Shown piece by piece: positions 31,909 to 61,985 of a stretch of 64,000 nucleotides of DNA. The position numbers and the translations under genes were made by a program. The notes under the pieces are model-generated. The model saw only the letters and a list, made by a program, of their open reading frames with translations, did no database searches and was not told the DNA's origin. Each line of letters starts with the position of its first letter. Within the stretch, counting starts at the first letter, position 1. The DNA comes from Minisyncoccota bacterium. GTDB taxonomy: Bacteria > Patescibacteriota > Minisyncoccia > Phycocordibacterales > UBA6065. The stretch covers positions 192,189 to 256,188 of the forward strand of contig JBAZUA010000001.1 of NCBI GenBank assembly GCA_041661645.1, given 5' to 3'.

Positions 31909-31980
31909 GGCCACGTAGAAAAGTGGTAATTCGGAGATCTGCAAAATCTCTATGCGCGAGTTCGATTCTCGCCGTGGCCT
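31909..31980 (+). tRNA. tRNA-Cys (anticodon GCA)
   Basis: Acceptor GGCCACG/CGTGGCC. Anticodon stem-loop GAGAT-CTGCAAA-ATCTC. T-arm GCGAG-TTCGATT-CTCGC. Confidence 0.75.
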
Positions 31981-32004
31981 CAAGGACGTTTCTTCGATAC
32001 AAGG

Positions 32005-32088
32005 TGGGTCAGGTGGGGGTCGAACCCACATCCGCTTTCGCGGACACCATTTTAAGTGGTGCGCGTATACCAGTTCCGCCACTAACCC
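32005..32088 (-). tRNA. tRNA-Leu (anticodon UAA), long variable arm
   Basis: Acceptor GGGTTAG/CTGACCC. D-arm as in Leu tRNAs (TGGCGGAACTGGTATACGC). Anticodon loop CTTAAAA. Variable arm TCCGCGAAAGCGGAT. Confidence 0.7.
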
Positions 32089-32221
32089 GATACCGAGAAG
32101 ATTATCACCTCGCACGCCTTTAGACCAACCTCGGTGGGAGCAAGACTTATATCGCAGATAAAAACTGGAAAAAAAGACAGATATGCGTTAAGATGGCTTT
32201 CGTCCCCAGACAGCGCAATAT

Positions 32222-32294
32222 CCTCCCTTAGCTCAGTTGGTAGAGCTGCTCCCTCTTAAGGAGAAGGTCGTAGGTTCGATTCCTACAGGGAGGA
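32222..32294 (+). tRNA. tRNA-Lys (anticodon CUU)
   Basis: Acceptor CCTCCCT/AGGGAGG. D-arm GCTC-AGTTGGTA-GAGC. Anticodon loop CTCTTAA. T-arm GTAGG-TTCGATT-CCTAC. An intrinsic terminator follows at about 32305-32350. Confidence 0.7.
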
Positions 32295-32389
32295 CAAACG
32301 AACGAAAGGCCGAAATGAGAAAACTCATTCCGGCCTTTCTGATACACAGAAGAGGGTGTCAAAATATTATTTGACAAAATCTTAAAAAA

Positions 32390-32695
32390 ATGGAGTATTC
32401 GAAGAAGAACCATATGCAACTTACATCCTACAGACTCTCTGGTTACGAAGGCTATTTCGTAAAAGGAGACGGGAGCACCCATGTGTGCGACAACTCTTGT
32501 TATCAACTGGAATTCAAGGCAAAAGGTGACGCCTCTGCGATAAGGCGCTCACTGGCCAGGGTCCGAACATTCGCAAGGACCTTCGAAGGGGCCGATTGGT
32601 ATAAGTTCGAGGTCGCCCTCCATCGCAAGGACAGCAAAGACGAGAGTCCGCTGCTCAAAGCCTCGGTAATCAAGAATTTGAAGAGGAAACCCTGA
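32390..32695 (+). CDS. Small hypothetical protein (101 aa)
   Basis: ORF preceded by an AT-rich promoter-like region (TTGACA at 32372) and followed by a terminator (gccggc hairpin plus tttttatt at about 32720-32757). Confidence 0.4.
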   Translation: MEYSKKNHMQLTSYRLSGYEGYFVKGDGSTHVCDNSCYQLEFKAKGDASAIRRSLARVRTFARTFEGADWYKFEVALHRKDSKDESPLLKASVIKNLKRKP

Positions 32696-32761
32696 TCCCG
32701 TCAAAATACGACAACGCCCTCCAAGCCGGCTTTCCAAAAAGAACGCCGGCTTTTTATTGTC

Positions 32762-32790
32762 TTGACCCACCCCTCGATGTCATCTACTAT
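32762..32790 (+). promoter_or_regulatory. Sigma70-type promoter TTGACC-17-TACTAT driving tRNA-Leu(UAG)
   Basis: The -10 box ends 9 nt before the tRNA 5' end. Confidence 0.5.
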
Positions 32791-32799
32791 GTCCCTAAC

Positions 32800-32880
32800 G
32801 CGCGAGTGGTGAAATGGCAGACACACCTGCCTTAGGAGCAGGCGCCGCAAGGCATGGAGGTTCAAGTCCTCTCTCGCGCA
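32800..32880 (+). tRNA. tRNA-Leu (anticodon UAG), long variable arm
   Basis: Acceptor GCGCGAG/CTCGCGC. Anticodon stem-loop CCTGC-CTTAGGA-GCAGG. T-arm GGAGG-TTCAAGT-CCTCT. Confidence 0.7.
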
Positions 32881-56000: not shown

Positions 56001-56627
56001 TCACTGCTTTCGGGCAGCCGCCAGGCCGATATCGTCACTCACATAATTACCACGCCAGGCGTTGATGCGGAAACCTTCGGCACCAAAACGTCCGACAAGG
56101 ACGCGAAATCCCTGCGAATCTAGATCGGCGCAACGAACACAGACACTCTCGAAAAGACGCTCTCCCGATTTAAGGAAGTGGCCGATCGCGGAATAAACCA
56201 CAATCCGAGCACTCGGCGTGTCCTCGTCCTTCGAGAGAACTGCCGACTGCTCTTCCCACTTCTTCGACATCGAGCCGGCGACAGGAAGCTTTCTGAACAG
56301 CCACCAGCCAACCTCGCCCCTGTCATTGACGAACGGCTCTGCATCATACCAGTCGCGTGGATAAAACAGGGTTTGATCGGGCAGATTGGCATACAACCTC
56401 TTGATATCAATGATGGACATCGGAAATACCGCAACAAGAAGGTGTGTGTCCTTGCACTCCATCAGGGTCTCTTCCGAAAACGGAACCTTGGAAAGGAATT
56501 CAAACTGCTCCTCCGTGGGAACCACAAAGAAGTGACTGACCGCCTCATCCATCCCAAAGAAGTTCTTGCCCATGATTTCACGGGCGCGAGCCTCGGTAAC
56601 TGGTCCTGATTTTGCTTTAGTAATCAT
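56001..56627 (-). CDS. Hypothetical protein (208 aa)
   Basis: Well-formed ORF between the ftsZ terminator and trxB. No domain recognised. Confidence 0.45.
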   Translation of the reverse strand: MITKAKSGPVTEARAREIMGKNFFGMDEAVSHFFVVPTEEQFEFLSKVPFSEETLMECKDTHLLVAVFPMSIIDIKRLYANLPDQTLFYPRDWYDAEPFVNDRGEVGWWLFRKLPVAGSMSKKWEEQSAVLSKDEDTPSARIVVYSAIGHFLKSGERLFESVCVRCADLDSQGFRVLVGRFGAEGFRINAWRGNYVSDDIGLAAARKQ

Positions 56628-56820
56628 ACTTGAGTTGAGTTAGCGTGAGAAAGTATGCGAAGACGACGTGTTTTCGTATCTTTTCTCCAATAACCCAACA
56701 TCTCTCAAAGAGCCAGCTTCCTCTGGTTTATACACTCCAGAACACATAAAGTCAATAATTACACAGCTCTGCAGAAATCCCCCACCCTGCTATAATTACC
56801 TGACTAACTTTTCCATCAAC

Positions 56821-57741
56821 ATGTACGACCTAGCAATCATCGGCGGCGGGCCAGCGGGAGTGGCGGCGGGGGTATACGCCTCGAGGAAGCGTATCAAGAC
56901 CATCTTCATCACCAAAGACTGGAACAGCCAATCCACGGTATCGGAAGGCATCGAGAACTGGATAGGCACAGTGAAGATTTCCGGCGCGGACTTCGCAAAG
57001 AACATGGAAGCACACCTTCGCGCATACGCATCTGACGTCGTCGACATCAAGACAGGAGTCCTGTGCCAGAAGGTCACAAAAACCGACCAAGGATTCGAGG
57101 TAGCGACCGATGGCGGCACGTACTCGGCAAAGACCGTCCTCATCGCCACCGGCAGCCACAGGCGCAAGCTCGAGGTCCCCGGTGGCGACACGTACGAGCA
57201 CAAGGGCATCACCTACTGCGCCTCGTGCGACGGGCCGATGTTCACGGACCGGGACGTGGTGGTCATCGGCGGCGGAAACGCCGCGTTCGAGAGCGCTTCC
57301 CAGCTCCTCGCCTACTGCAAGTCAGTCACCCTCCTCAACCGCAGCGACGAGTTCAAGGCCGACCCCATCACCGTCAAGAAGGTCCTCTCAAACCCAAAGG
57401 TGCGCGCGATAAAGGGCGCGATACCGACCGAGGTAAAGGGGGACAAATTCGCCAAGTCAATCTCATACAGGGACAAGGCCACCGGCGAGATCACCGAGCT
57501 CCCCACCACGGGAATATTCGTCGAGATCGGATCGATACCGACGACGGAGTTCGCGAAGGACGTCGTGACCGTCGACCCCTACGGTCGCATCGTCGTGGAC
57601 CCTCGCACCCAGGCGGCATCGACCGCCGGAGTCTGGGCCGCAGGGGACTGCACCGACGGAATCTATCACCAGAACAACATCGCGGCGGGAGACGCCGTGA
57701 AGGCGCTCGAGGACATCTACATATATCTGAACGCGAAATAA
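56821..57741 (+). CDS. trxB: Thioredoxin-disulfide reductase
   Basis: FAD motif DLAIIGGGPAG. Redox-active CASC. NADPH motif VVVIGGGNAAFE. TATAAT at 56791-56796 upstream. Confidence 0.85.
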   Translation: MYDLAIIGGGPAGVAAGVYASRKRIKTIFITKDWNSQSTVSEGIENWIGTVKISGADFAKNMEAHLRAYASDVVDIKTGVLCQKVTKTDQGFEVATDGGTYSAKTVLIATGSHRRKLEVPGGDTYEHKGITYCASCDGPMFTDRDVVVIGGGNAAFESASQLLAYCKSVTLLNRSDEFKADPITVKKVLSNPKVRAIKGAIPTEVKGDKFAKSISYRDKATGEITELPTTGIFVEIGSIPTTEFAKDVVTVDPYGRIVVDPRTQAASTAGVWAAGDCTDGIYHQNNIAAGDAVKALEDIYIYLNAK

Positions 57742-57759: not shown

Positions 57760-57978
57760 CTAACGATATAATTGGGAATGGGTGCCGGTGTCCATGAAAA
57801 TCACAGCGACATCACAATCCTCAAATATCGCCCTATAATCTCCCGTTATATTAGTACTCCTGCAATTCCTAAGCGCTCCGCCCAACGAGTGATTGTTCAG
57901 AATGGGGTATGTTTTCCGGAAGCTTCTTGAAAGCCTTCTCAAAGCGTTTCTTGTAGCGAATAACCATGAGCCATAAAA
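57760..57978 (-). pseudogene. YafQ/RelE-family toxin remnant, N-terminally truncated, in frame immediately after the antitoxin stop
   Basis: NNHSLGGALRNCRSTNITGDYRAIFEDCDVAVIFMDTGTHSQLY aligns with the C-terminal two thirds of YafQ (GSWKGYRDAHVEPDWILIYKL...FERTGTHAALF). There is no ATG. The first in-frame start is TTG at 57942, and the frame is open back to the antitoxin TAA. Confidence 0.45.
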
Positions 57979-58257
57979 TTAAAGGCCCTTGAGATAGGCT
58001 ATCGCATCTTTTGCGTTTTCAAAGACCGGTGAGAGGCCCTTCCCTTTCTTGGTTTCCCCTATATCCCGAATGAGTGACCTTCGAGTCCTTGGATTCAAAT
58101 CATCCTTTCGAGAAAGCCTGACATCGAGATCGCCTTCGACGAACGCCCTGGTGGCGAGCTTTAGAATGGACGCAAAAGGGACGCCCTCGTTACGAGCCTT
58201 CTTCATGGCCTTCTCCTTAAGCTTGCTGTCTATGTTAAAAACTACCTGTGTATTCAT
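57979..58257 (-). CDS. RelB/DinJ family antitoxin (ribbon-helix-helix)
   Basis: MNTQVVFNIDSKLKEKAMKKARNEGVPFASILKLATRAFVEGDL resembles the DinJ N-terminal RHH. AT-rich locus. Confidence 0.5.
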   Translation of the reverse strand: MNTQVVFNIDSKLKEKAMKKARNEGVPFASILKLATRAFVEGDLDVRLSRKDDLNPRTRRSLIRDIGETKKGKGLSPVFENAKDAIAYLKGL

Positions 58258-58312
58258 ATATATATCTTAGCTATATATAAGCTATATGTCAACCACCATG
58301 CGGGCACTGGGG

Positions 58313-58993
58313 TTAATCCCTCTGATCGCTGACTATCTTCCCATCATCGAGGCGCACCACGCGCTTGGCCATCTTGGCGTACTCCTCCTCGTGCGTGACC
58401 ATGATGATAGTCTGCCCCTGCTCGTATATCTCCCTGAAGAGGGCCATGACGGTGCGGGATGATTCGTTGTCGAGGTTTGCGGTCGGCTCGTCGGCAAAGA
58501 GCACGCGGGGCTTGTGTGCGAGGGCGCGGGCCACGGACACGCGCTGTTGCTCGCCTCCCGAGAGCTGGCTTGGCAGGTTTCCGACTCGATTGCCGAGGCC
58601 GACGCGAACAAGAGACTCGGTCGCCTCCCGATACGCCTCGGCCTTGGACTTGCCCTGCATCATGAGCGGCAGCGCCACGTTCTCGACGGCGGTGAGGTCG
58701 GGCAGGAGCGCATAGTCCTGGAAGACATAGCCGAGCTGATTGAGGCGAAAGACGGTCTTCTGCTCGGCGGTCATGTTGTGCGTGTCCTTGCCGAAGACGA
58801 ATATCTCGCCCGACGTCGGCTCGTCGAGGAGCGAGAGCTGGTAGAGGAAGGTCGACTTGCCAGCGCCCGATCGCCCGACAATGGCGATGAACTCCCTCTC
58901 GTCCACCGAGAAGTCGATGCCCTTCAGCACATGGGTCTGCTTGTCCCCGTCCGTGAAGGTCTTCCTGAGATTTTTTACTTCGATGAGTTTCAT
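58313..58993 (-). CDS. ABC transporter ATP-binding protein (MacB/LolD/FtsE-like)
   Basis: Walker A GRSGAGKST. Signature LSGGEQQRVSVARA. Walker B VLFADEPT. Start at MKLIEVKNL. Confidence 0.85.
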   Translation of the reverse strand: MKLIEVKNLRKTFTDGDKQTHVLKGIDFSVDEREFIAIVGRSGAGKSTFLYQLSLLDEPTSGEIFVFGKDTHNMTAEQKTVFRLNQLGYVFQDYALLPDLTAVENVALPLMMQGKSKAEAYREATESLVRVGLGNRVGNLPSQLSGGEQQRVSVARALAHKPRVLFADEPTANLDNESSRTVMALFREIYEQGQTIIMVTHEEEYAKMAKRVVRLDDGKIVSDQRD

Positions 58994-59015
58994 AAGATGT
59001 GTTTGTTTAGGCGGC

Positions 59016-60263
59016 CTAATTCCTCCCCAGGATGGAATCAAGGGTGTTCTTTCGGACGATCATGCGGGCCGGTATATATCCCGCGACCAGAGTGGTGATG
59101 ACCAAGAGCAGTATCCTGAACATGGTCTCCCCGAAAGGCGCCACCAGGATGCCGTCGGAGAACGGGAAGTCGATTGGGTTGGCGGCGATGTACGGCTGGA
59201 GGAGGCCGAAGAGGACGGCAAGGCCTATCGACGAGCCGAGGACCGCATAGAAGATGGACTGGAAGACGTATGAGGTCTCGATTGCGGTGCCGCTGATGCC
59301 GATGCCCTTCATGATGCCGATGAACTTGCGGCGGGTGATGGCATTGATGAAGATGACGATGAATATTGTGATCGATGCGACCGCGAGGCCAATCGAACTG
59401 ATCATGTTGCCGAGCAGGGCAAAGGTCGCCTTGATGTCCTGGAGGAACTTTGGCTGGGCGTCCTCGAAGGTCTGCACGCGGGCATATTCGGCGACACCCG
59501 ACCTGATGAGGCCGTCGCGCACGGCGATCGGATCGCTTCCGGGCCTGAGCTTCATGGAAATCTCGTCCACGTTGTAGTCGTCACGCCCGATGAGCCCGCG
59601 AAGCTGGCTGTCAACGAAGAACACGCGGAAGCCAAGCTCGTCCACCTTGGACTTGATGATGCCCTTTATGGTCATCTCGCGGGTGATGCCGCCCACCTTG
59701 ATACGGACCTTGTCGCCGATATTGATGTCAGAGAGCGTGGTGAAGCCAGGGGACTCGATCGGAAGGTATTTCTTGAGGAGGTTCGCGCCGATGAGAATCT
59801 GATCATAGTCATCCGACTTGAGGTACTCGCCCTCGACGATGAACTTGGACAGGTGGGTGACGCCGTCCTCGGCCGCAGGGTCGATGCCGACAAAGCTCGA
59901 TGCGGCGCTCTCGATGTCCTCGGTCTTTGCCGCCTCCTTGTAATGCGCCTGGATACTGCCGCCCTCGATATAGCGGGCCGTGTATGCGGCGGCCTCGGGC
60001 AATGCCGACACGATAGAGAGGATCTTTGGGGTCTGCTCGATGTAGTCCTTCTTGGGGAGCTTCGAGAGTATGACGTCGCTCGTGTAGTAGACACGGTTAG
60101 CATCGACGGACCCCTGAATGAGGCCAACAAGCACGCCGGACACCACCACGAGGTTGAGGAAGGTCAGCACCATGACGAAGACGATGAGGCTCGTCGTCCA
60201 GACGCTCGCCCTGCGGATCTGGCGCAGGGCCAGGAAGAATCCTATGCGTATGAATTGCGGCAT
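59016..60263 (-). CDS. ABC transporter permease, FtsX/MacB family (four TM with a large periplasmic domain)
   Basis: N-terminal TM, large extracytoplasmic domain, and C-terminal FtsX-like three-TM bundle. Confidence 0.8.
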   Translation of the reverse strand: MPQFIRIGFFLALRQIRRASVWTTSLIVFVMVLTFLNLVVVSGVLVGLIQGSVDANRVYYTSDVILSKLPKKDYIEQTPKILSIVSALPEAAAYTARYIEGGSIQAHYKEAAKTEDIESAASSFVGIDPAAEDGVTHLSKFIVEGEYLKSDDYDQILIGANLLKKYLPIESPGFTTLSDINIGDKVRIKVGGITREMTIKGIIKSKVDELGFRVFFVDSQLRGLIGRDDYNVDEISMKLRPGSDPIAVRDGLIRSGVAEYARVQTFEDAQPKFLQDIKATFALLGNMISSIGLAVASITIFIVIFINAITRRKFIGIMKGIGISGTAIETSYVFQSIFYAVLGSSIGLAVLFGLLQPYIAANPIDFPFSDGILVAPFGETMFRILLLVITTLVAGYIPARMIVRKNTLDSILGRN

Positions 60264-61749: not shown

Positions 61750-61821
61750 TGACCCTACAGAGAATCGAACTCTGATTACAGCCTTGAAAAGGCCGTGTCC
61801 TAACCGTTAGACGATAGGGCC
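61750..61821 (-). tRNA. tRNA-Glu (anticodon UUC)
   Basis: Acceptor GGCCCTA/TAGGGTC. D-arm GTCT-AACGGTTA-GGAC. Anticodon loop TTTTCAA. T-arm CAGAG-TTCGATT-CTCTG. Confidence 0.75.
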
Positions 61822-61898
61822 ATTGCGGCCAAATATAGCAATATTTTGTAAAAATCGCAAAAATGTGAGAGTATGTGGAGCGCATCGGTTGCGGTCAC

Positions 61899-61985
61899 GG
61901 AGAGGTGGCAGAGTGGTCGAATGCACCAGTTTCGAAAACTGGCAGGCTCGAAAGGGTCTCGGGAGTTCGAATCTCCCCCTCTCCG
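61899..61985 (+). tRNA. tRNA-Ser (anticodon CGA), long variable arm
   Basis: Acceptor GGAGAGG/CCTCTCC. Anticodon stem-loop CCAGT-TTCGAAA-ACTGG. Variable arm. T-arm GGGAG-TTCGAAT-CTCCC. Confidence 0.75.

Follow-up and report, generated by a model that had tools for sequence, protein, structure and literature searches.

An intact antitoxin gene beside a YafQ/RelE-family toxin pseudogene in a Patescibacteria genome

Layout of the cassette and its chromosomal neighbours

The locus described here lies in a 64-kb stretch of a metagenome-assembled genome, called the window throughout, and all coordinates are those of the window. The locus is read on the minus strand, where a sigma-70-like promoter is followed by an antitoxin ORF, a short gap and a broken toxin gene (Table 1). 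The first-pass annotation of this DNA was silent on the minus strand of the feature. Its description of an intact 92-aa antitoxin was borne out by the ORF, which runs from an ATG to a TAA. Two small adjacent genes in the same orientation, with the antitoxin first and 11 nt between them, make up the layout of a type II toxin-antitoxin (TA) operon, and the same order, with the toxin a few nt downstream of the antitoxin, is found in E. coli DinJ-YafQ and in H. pylori HP0895-HP0894. Only one of the two partners is intact at the window locus, as the toxin gene carries a frameshifting deletion of 50 nt. The locus had been called AT-rich and this was confirmed, the cassette (57760..58295) having a GC content of 44.8%, while that of the window as a whole is 55.4% and the adjoining flanks reach about 60%. 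The GC3 of the antitoxin gene was 0.56 as compared to 0.76-0.80 in the neighbouring genes.

Table 1. Features of the TA locus and its neighbours, in window coordinates.
Feature	Position	Strand	Description
Thioredoxin-reductase-like flavoprotein (trxB)	56668..57741	+	Pfam Pyr_redox_2, E=1.1e-40; syntenic in L005
Disrupted YafQ/RelE-family toxin	57967..57760	-	ATG to TAG, 208 nt
Toxin C-terminal remnant	57760..57906	-	48 codons and TAG (PILNNHS...GTHSQLYR), corresponding to beta2-beta4 and alpha3
Deletion junction	57904..57910	-	near 57909/57908, uncertain by a few nt
Toxin N-terminal remnant	57908..57967	-	ATG and 19 codons (MVIRYKKRFEKAFKKLPENI), corresponding to beta1 and alpha1
Gap between antitoxin and toxin	57978..57968	-	11 nt
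Intact antitoxin, 92 aa	57979..58257	-	ATG start, TAA stop
Putative operator	58255..58288	.	AT-rich inverted repeats over the promoter spacer, -10 and start codon
Cassette promoter	58264..58292	-	-35 TTGACA (58292..58287), 17-nt spacer, -10 TAAGAT (58269..58264)
ABC-transporter ATPase	58313..59041	-	Pfam ABC_tran, E=2.9e-32; syntenic in L005

The gene directly upstream of the cassette encodes an ABC-transporter ATPase and is the last gene of a HlyD/FtsX/ABC (MacAB-like) operon. On the other side a thioredoxin-reductase-like gene is convergent with the cassette, and its stop codon lies 18 nt from the stop codon of the toxin. An Rfam scan of the window detected tRNAs only, none of them at the TA locus.

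A syntenic ortholog of the locus, L005 (JGI 3300045993), was found by looking up first the exact sequence of the antitoxin and then its closest homolog (P0002, 74% identical). The gene order in L005 is a HlyD-like adaptor, an FtsX permease, an ABC ATPase, an M23 peptidase and the antitoxin, followed by an 85-aa toxin, the convergent thioredoxin-reductase-like gene and, further on, ftsZ. A search of 5.8 billion proteins for closer relatives or for an intact allele returned the identical antitoxin, and the next best match was 74% identical. DNA identity between the window and L005 was 80-84% in the flanks, about 78% across the TA cassette and about 74% in coding DNA. As the cassette occupies the same site in L005 and has diverged to a degree similar to that of its flanks, it was already present there in the common ancestor. 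The housekeeping neighbours, together with this shared site and flank-like divergence, argue that the cassette is an old chromosomal resident rather than a recent plasmid remnant. The mobile-element ancestry raised in the first-pass annotation has indirect support at most. The cassette is AT-rich and has a conserved promoter of its own, but it is flanked by housekeeping genes (the MacAB-like operon and trxB) and occupies the same site in its relative.

The 50-nt deletion in the toxin gene

Alignment of the window with L005 demonstrated a single gap of 50 columns and no other disruptive difference, in agreement with the lengths of the two toxin genes (258 nt for the intact 85-aa ORF of L005 minus 208 nt in the window). 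The deletion corresponds to ortholog codons 21-36 plus 2 nt, resulting in the loss of 16 residues and a frame shift of +1. The ATG at 57967 opens a 32-aa ORF (MVIRYKKRFEKAFKKLPENIPHSEQSLVGRSA) that continues out of frame to a TAG at 57871..57869, and 14 of the 19 residues following the start codon in the N-terminal remnant are identical to the L005 toxin. The C-terminal remnant is 58% identical to the L005 toxin and happens to share the frame of the antitoxin, so that, as the first reading had it, this frame stays open for 72 codons after the antitoxin TAA, to the TAG at 57762..57760. Neither an ATG nor a GTG start is present in the C-terminal remnant, and the sole in-frame start is the TTG at 57942 that had been reported previously, which opens a 60-aa ORF. 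In the ortholog the toxin and antitoxin are in different frames (11-nt gap), so the shared frame of antitoxin and remnant is a by-product of the deletion. A fusion of the antitoxin to the remnant by stop-codon readthrough was considered and set aside, the stop codon being TAA and the product still being without beta1 to alpha2.

Profile searches located the toxin in two pieces. The family toxin HMM had matches in two frames of the window, covering its positions 1-21 in one and 35-84 in the other, and in a six-frame translation of the window the C-terminal piece was detected by this family-specific HMM at E=5e-21 and is thus not a chance match. The last 45 residues had been aligned in the first-pass annotation with the C-terminal portion of YafQ, and the curated profiles agreed, matching YafQ_toxin at positions 43-87 of 88 (E=1.6e-5, 25.6 bits; cut-off 30) and RelE_StbE, TIGR02385 (E=1.8e-5, 25.1 bits; cut-off 27.9). 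A conceptual join of both remnants reached 29.7 bits with YafQ_toxin and 26.9 bits with RelE_StbE. Both scores are below the cut-off, and the window toxin therefore falls short of the curated thresholds for a YafQ/RelE-StbE toxin (PF15738, PF05016; TIGR02385).

The nature of the ancestral toxin was assessed from the ortholog. A search with the L005 toxin returned 244 proteins at E≤0.001, and among the best 120 of these 244 nearly all were 83-86 aa long and carried the highly conserved pattern ...LNNHSVD...CRSINVTGDYRAIF...IGTHSELY. The L005 toxin has precomputed Pfam matches to ParE_toxin and YafQ_toxin, and precomputed matches to PF15738 and/or PF05016 are also seen in most family members of the listing, so the ancestral gene matches these Pfam families and the window sequence is a fragment of such a gene. 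When the L005 toxin was modelled with AlphaFold2 from a 42-sequence alignment (pLDDT 95.7), the model displayed the full fold, with beta1 at residues 2-5, alpha1 at 7-15, alpha2 at 18-33, beta2 at 53-56, beta3 at 61-67, beta4 at 71-79 and alpha3 at 80-84. The best PDB matches of this model were E. coli YafQ (4MMJ, TM 0.82), H. pylori HP0894, V. cholerae YafQ and M. jannaschii RelE. Comparison of the toxin profile to PDB sequences agreed, with HP0894 at E about 1e-5 and YafQ (4ML0) at E=1.7e-3.

Family residues were paired with YafQ using hhalign and a sequence that we take to be that of E. coli YafQ. Family H43, N56, D60, H80 and Y84 corresponded to YafQ H50, H63, D67, H87 and F91, and all five of these catalytic-type residues are present in the window remnant. 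The roles proposed for these residues in YafQ are those of general base, general acid, pKa modulator and stacking residue (PMC4652777). The L005 toxin thus resembles YafQ in its beta-alpha-alpha-beta-beta-beta fold and in having H, D, H and Y at the positions of H50, D67, H87 and F91, but sequence identity to YafQ is about 22-24% and a nearly invariant Asn replaces H63. By homology, the ancestral toxin would have been an mRNA endonuclease of the YafQ/RelE type that acts in a ribosome-dependent manner. Ribosome-dependent cleavage is putative for this family, and unlike in DinJ-YafQ the toxin at the window locus is a pseudogene.

Of the 16 residues that make up alpha2, 13 are lost with the deletion, among them R27 and F31, which are invariant, and F24, which is nearly so. 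The window toxin does not have the complete RelE fold (beta1-alpha1-alpha2-beta2-beta3-beta4, with or without alpha3). As the N-terminal half is reduced to a 32-aa peptide ending at a nonsense codon and the C-terminal half lacks an ATG or GTG start, the toxin gene is, on the alignment with its ortholog, a pseudogene created by an out-of-frame internal deletion of 50 nt.

The antitoxin and its promoter

The antitoxin of the window retains all invariant columns of its family and scored 148 bits with the family HMM, as compared to 118-157 bits for antitoxins that are accompanied by an intact toxin. In an AF2 monomer model (pLDDT 78), helices were predicted at residues 11-24 and 28-41 in the N-terminal part and at 56-70 and 82-91 in the C-terminal part, and the predicted structure may correspond to a ribbon-helix-helix (RHH)-like N-terminal domain followed by two C-terminal helices, as in DinJ. 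Searches with the window antitoxin produced no match in Pfam or NCBIfam at E≤1, and a comparison of the antitoxin profile to PDB sequences returned no antitoxin, only spurious matches to designed helical repeat proteins (dTor). Pfam RelB (PF04221) was matched weakly by 8 of 30 antitoxin relatives, with a best E-value of 0.013. Several relatives are named 'antitoxin component of RelBE/YafQ-DinJ' in IMG/JGI, and the NCBI annotation of the window antitoxin in the source MAG is hypothetical. The antitoxin family therefore differs from that of DinJ-YafQ in going unrecognised by Pfam RelB (PF04221) or any NCBIfam model, and the 'relB/dinJ-type' label of the first-pass annotation finds little backing in the sequence, as the window antitoxin does not match RelB/DinJ (PF04221; COG3077). 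Taking these observations together, we accept that the antitoxin probably works like an RHH antitoxin of the DinJ/RelB type, while its membership in PF04221 is putative.

Upstream of the antitoxin a consensus scan identified a promoter that agrees with the sigma-70-like consensus at 10 of 12 positions. The end of the -10 element is 6 nt from the antitoxin ATG, and this spacing predicts a leaderless antitoxin mRNA. The promoter was strongly conserved. A 33-nt segment that starts with the -35 element (58292..58260) was identical between the window and L005 despite saturated synonymous sites, and 39 of 53 family loci had an exact TTGACATATA no more than 100 nt upstream of the antitoxin. These 39 account for all but three of the 42 occurrences of TTGACATATA in 340 kb of locus sequence. 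Two spacing classes were apparent, one with TTGACATATA at 35-41 nt, which includes the window and places the -10 element about 6 nt before the ATG, and one at 55-65 nt with a short leader.

The promoter overlaps a set of AT-rich inverted repeats. These consist of 11-nt arms at 58257-58267 and 58269-58279, a CATATA/TATATG pair at 58255-58260 and 58283-58288, and a TAGCTA palindrome at 58268-58273. The region was conserved across the antitoxin family, and the sequence is TA-rich so that some of the repeats may be due to chance. The repeats are the likely operator, which the antitoxin would bind by analogy with known RHH antitoxins. Judged from the conserved columns and promoter elements, both the antitoxin ORF and its promoter are undamaged.

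Toxin loss across the family and competing readings

We used the antitoxin alignment to scan GTDB representatives, one genome per species, and obtained 63 loci, nearly all from Patescibacteria MAGs. A full-length antitoxin was present in 54 of the 63 loci. The toxin was intact in 43 of these 54, and 11 of the 54 had an independent toxin lesion (20%, a figure biased by the selection of loci on a full-length antitoxin). The 43 intact toxins were 84-87 aa long and started from -10 to +66 nt relative to the antitoxin stop, mostly between +1 and +14. Inspection of the 11 broken loci revealed unrelated lesions, with frameshifts in two (L014 and L024), nonsense codons in another two (L017 and L026) and deletions or truncations in five, while the toxin was gone from the remaining two (L018 and L047). 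Among the five, L032 and L035 had a C-terminal deletion or truncation, L040 had lost an internal segment in frame and was left with a mini-ORF of 34 aa, L050 had an N-terminal deletion that extended to the antitoxin stop codon, and L056 retained just 9 codons. [quoted passage not shown]

Loss of the toxin ahead of the antitoxin has been described in other bacteria. In Photorhabdus, the toxin was the only pseudogenised gene in 185 copies of TA modules and the antitoxin the only one in 8, and in a further 186 both had become pseudogenes (Belot et al. 2026, PMC13617665). In Klebsiella orphan antitoxins are abundant, and anti-addiction is among the roles they have been suggested to play (Horesh et al. 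2020, PMC7192599). The window locus is like these eroded modules in that the toxin was lost first, the antitoxin ORF is intact, the chromosomal neighbourhood is conserved and independent lesions are recurrent. It is unlike them in its host phylum (Patescibacteria/CPR) and TA family, and the rate of 11 in 54 is not directly comparable with the Photorhabdus and Klebsiella surveys as our sample was found through the antitoxin.

The remnants still resemble a toxin gene under constraint. With an HMM of the matching columns the C-terminal remnant scored 81.9 bits, the fifth lowest score among the 45 intact toxins (67.5-107.1, median 98.3). The N-terminal remnant scored 41.7 bits with the family N-terminal HMM, above all 45 intact toxins. 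Substitutions were present at three nearly invariant columns (V45L, I55T and I77T). Pairwise dN/dS compared to L005 was 0.12 for the remnant and 0.08 for the antitoxin. Dating of the lesion, or of a relaxation of constraint, by pairwise dN/dS was rejected since dS was saturated at 1.7-3.1 and the ratios show only that divergence took place mostly under constraint. As both remnants still resemble a constrained toxin gene, the sequences suggest that the toxin was under constraint for most of the time since the split from L005 and that the deletion is comparatively recent relative to that split.

We are confident that the locus is an eroded chromosomal type II TA cassette and that it belongs to a YafQ/RelE-like family with a wide distribution in Patescibacteria (CPR). 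Judging from the relatives, the ancestral state would have been a single promoter followed by an RHH antitoxin and, a few nt later, a toxin of 84-87 aa. By analogy with characterised antitoxins, the antitoxin would act as a dimer whose N-terminal domain contacts the palindromic operator of the antitoxin's own promoter, and the C-terminal helices would wrap around and neutralise the toxin. A single deletion then disabled the toxin gene by removing part of its coding sequence and shifting the frame, leaving a module presumably no longer able to arrest growth, to stabilise DNA through post-segregational killing or to abort infection. The cell probably continues to produce the antitoxin, likely from a leaderless mRNA, and the antitoxin probably still represses its own promoter. 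Erosion of the cassette also accommodates the first-pass view of a truncated toxin beside a persisting antitoxin, as the toxin is inactivated and the antitoxin intact, but the lesion is an internal 50-nt deletion and not an N-terminal truncation.

Of the other readings, the one that fares best extends this explanation rather than replacing it and holds that the orphan antitoxin has been selected for a new job, either anti-addiction or cross-immunity against homologous toxins, whether brought in by mobile elements or encoded at another place in the genome, or a role as a transcription factor. The undamaged antitoxin and promoter are consistent with this, and since the cassette family is widespread in Patescibacteria, homologous toxins are plausibly met. 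Others have raised this possibility for orphan antitoxins as a class (PMC7192599). Antitoxin HMM scores were comparable beside broken and intact toxins (median 134 and 136 bits, respectively; Mann-Whitney p=0.91), but this comparison is biased as the sample was chosen for full-length antitoxins. The same observations would also be expected if the toxin had merely been lost recently, and the decay of both genes at L063 speaks against retention. Within the 64-kb window, neither the toxin family nor the antitoxin family had a second member. We therefore consider selection for a new job unlikely, though it deserves more weight than the readings that follow.

It is far less probable that a shortened toxin is still made and active as part of a working TA pair, either as the 60-aa product from the TTG at 57942 or as a fusion of about 68 aa produced by a +1 ribosomal slip on CCC-C. 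Read from the sequence, the CCCC run at 57907..57904 is the only obvious site for such a slip from the frame of the N-terminal remnant to that of the C-terminal one, and it lies exactly at the deletion junction. The remnant also keeps the family H43, D60, H80 and Y84 and has an HMM score inside the range of intact toxins. However, both products would be without alpha2 and its R27, F31 and F24. The TTG product would in addition be without beta1 and alpha1, covering family-HMM positions 35-84 of 85, and it is therefore not the complete short RelE-like fold that would have made this an intact small toxin; all 43 intact family toxins are 84-87 aa long. Translation from the TTG is also disfavoured as no Shine-Dalgarno sequence precedes it, and the remnant has changed at the nearly invariant columns given above. 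The many kinds of lesion in the family, nonsense codons and complete loss included, point to loss of function and not to conserved recoding. Some residual function of a remnant product is nevertheless conceivable, given that all catalytic-type residues are kept and dN/dS is low.

We give slightly less credence still to the deletion being a sequencing or assembly artefact in a genome with an intact toxin. The window comes from a metagenome-assembled genome and all of the evidence is from short-read assemblies. However, four contigs from other samples (Logan SRR18595301, Logan SRR6484324, JGI 3300014208 and ENA ERZ27249449) were 100% identical to the window over 2.2-3.0 kb, the junction included. 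The five assemblies, which were produced in separate runs and with different pipelines (NCBI MAG, JGI, ENA and two Logan), represent one clonal population without within-lineage variation. As the four other assemblies are identical across the lesion, an assembler-specific error is unlikely, and a clean loss of 50 nt in non-repetitive sequence is atypical of assembler or homopolymer error.

Finally, a 5' truncation that took the toxin's start codon and its N-terminal residues (about 25 by the first-pass annotation) might be read from the lack of an ATG in the antitoxin frame and from the YafQ match being confined to the C-terminal 45-50 residues, but it has next to no probability, as the DNA alignment with L005 rules it out: the start codon and the 19 codons that follow it survive at 57967..57908 in a +1-shifted frame, where the ortholog has its own start, and the HMM alignment likewise places the missing segment inside the gene.

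Toxin-first erosion of chromosomal TA modules is common and already well documented, and as one more example the eroded cassette of the window matters little alone. A fitting annotation would be 'antitoxin plus toxin pseudogene (internal deletion)'. A bolder reading, to which we give somewhat less weight than to a new job for the orphan antitoxin in general, is that the antitoxin-only state in Patescibacteria is selectively retained and that the antitoxin, expressed from its own leaderless promoter, provides immunity against YafQ-like toxins of mobile elements or phages. If true, selective retention would explain why about one fifth of the species representatives have an independent toxin lesion beside an undecayed antitoxin. 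CPR bacteria commonly carry this antitoxin family, yet Pfam and NCBIfam models miss it and it is under-annotated. With 43 intact and 11 independently broken toxins and a very conserved promoter/operator, it makes up a compact set in which selection on orphan antitoxins can be tested.

Promoter of the cassette family

The toxin-antitoxin cassette is preceded by a strikingly conserved promoter that begins with TTGACATATA and is found 5' of the antitoxin start in the window and in the family loci L008-L065. An exact copy of TTGACATATA was present in 39 of 53 family loci, and nearly all exact occurrences in 340 kb (39/42) were those upstream of the antitoxin. The distance from promoter to antitoxin ATG fell into two spacing classes, 35-41 nt versus 55-65 nt. 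Judged from this spacing, the 35-41 nt class, which includes the window promoter, is predicted to produce a leaderless mRNA; the 55-65 nt class carries a short leader with no obvious Shine-Dalgarno sequence.

Many of the cassette-bearing TPA_asm MAGs (L008, L012, L016, L017, L019 and others) carry the record title 'uncultured Gammaproteobacteria bacterium'. The cassette was otherwise restricted to Patescibacteria, and these titles probably represent mislabelled or default taxonomy and not true host range.

Chromosomal surroundings of the cassette

We compared the window with L005, the syntenic ortholog locus that encodes an intact toxin. In L005 a gene for a 300-aa M23 peptidase lies between the ABC ATPase and the cassette, and this gene is absent from the window (L005:2068-2976 compared with window 58293-58312). 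Homology between the two restarts exactly at the -35 element TTGACA of the cassette (L005:2966, equivalent to window 58292).

On the other side of the cassette, the slot between trxB and ftsZ holds a 208-aa ORF in the window and an unrelated 154-aa ORF in L005. Neither ORF had a match in a Pfam search and no DNA similarity was detected across the slot between window and L005. This slot is apparently a short variable region beside the cassette. The start of the thioredoxin-reductase-like gene itself (plus strand) differed among gene callers in different assemblies with identical DNA, being placed either at GTG 56668 (357 aa) or at ATG 56821 (306 aa). We favour the shorter call because the Pfam match starts at its residue 2. 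Ten tRNA genes lie in the window, among them a cluster and a divergent pair, and no other Rfam families were detected in its 64 kb.

Features of the window and of related loci
Feature	Coordinates	Strand	Remark
Cassette promoter	window 58255-58292		
208-aa ORF	window 56001-56627	-	between trxB and ftsZ
Five tRNA genes	window 31909-32880 (31.9-32.9 kb)		cluster
tRNA pair	window 61750-61985 (61.75-61.99 kb)		divergent; just past HlyD-like gene
PemK/MazF-like ORF	L047:3327-3755		CAYHIR010000001.1
Toxin mini-ORF	L040:3280-3384		34 aa
Toxin mini-ORF	L050:3264-3365		adjoins antitoxin stop codon
Hairpin-forming repeats	L018:3277-3440		JBAYHV010000004.1

Fate of the toxin slot in relatives

Downstream of the full-length family antitoxin of L047 the YafQ-like toxin was absent; 50 nt 3' of the antitoxin lies instead an ORF of 142 aa that resembles PemK/MazF toxins (Pfam PemK_toxin, E=7e-10) and may represent a swap of toxin partner, or else an unrelated neighbour. 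At the expected toxin position of L018 we found two repeats that can form hairpins (GTCATTCCCGCGAAAGCGGGAATGAC and TTCCCGTTTCCACGGGAA-like); they look like REP or MITE-like elements that have taken the place of the toxin gene. In L040 and L050 the toxin was reduced to a mini-ORF of its final ~30 residues (…GDYRAIF…IGTHS.LY), which in L040 is an in-frame continuation of the toxin's first 5 codons. These two mini-ORFs show that the C-terminal strand region has repeatedly been kept after deletions of the N-terminal half.
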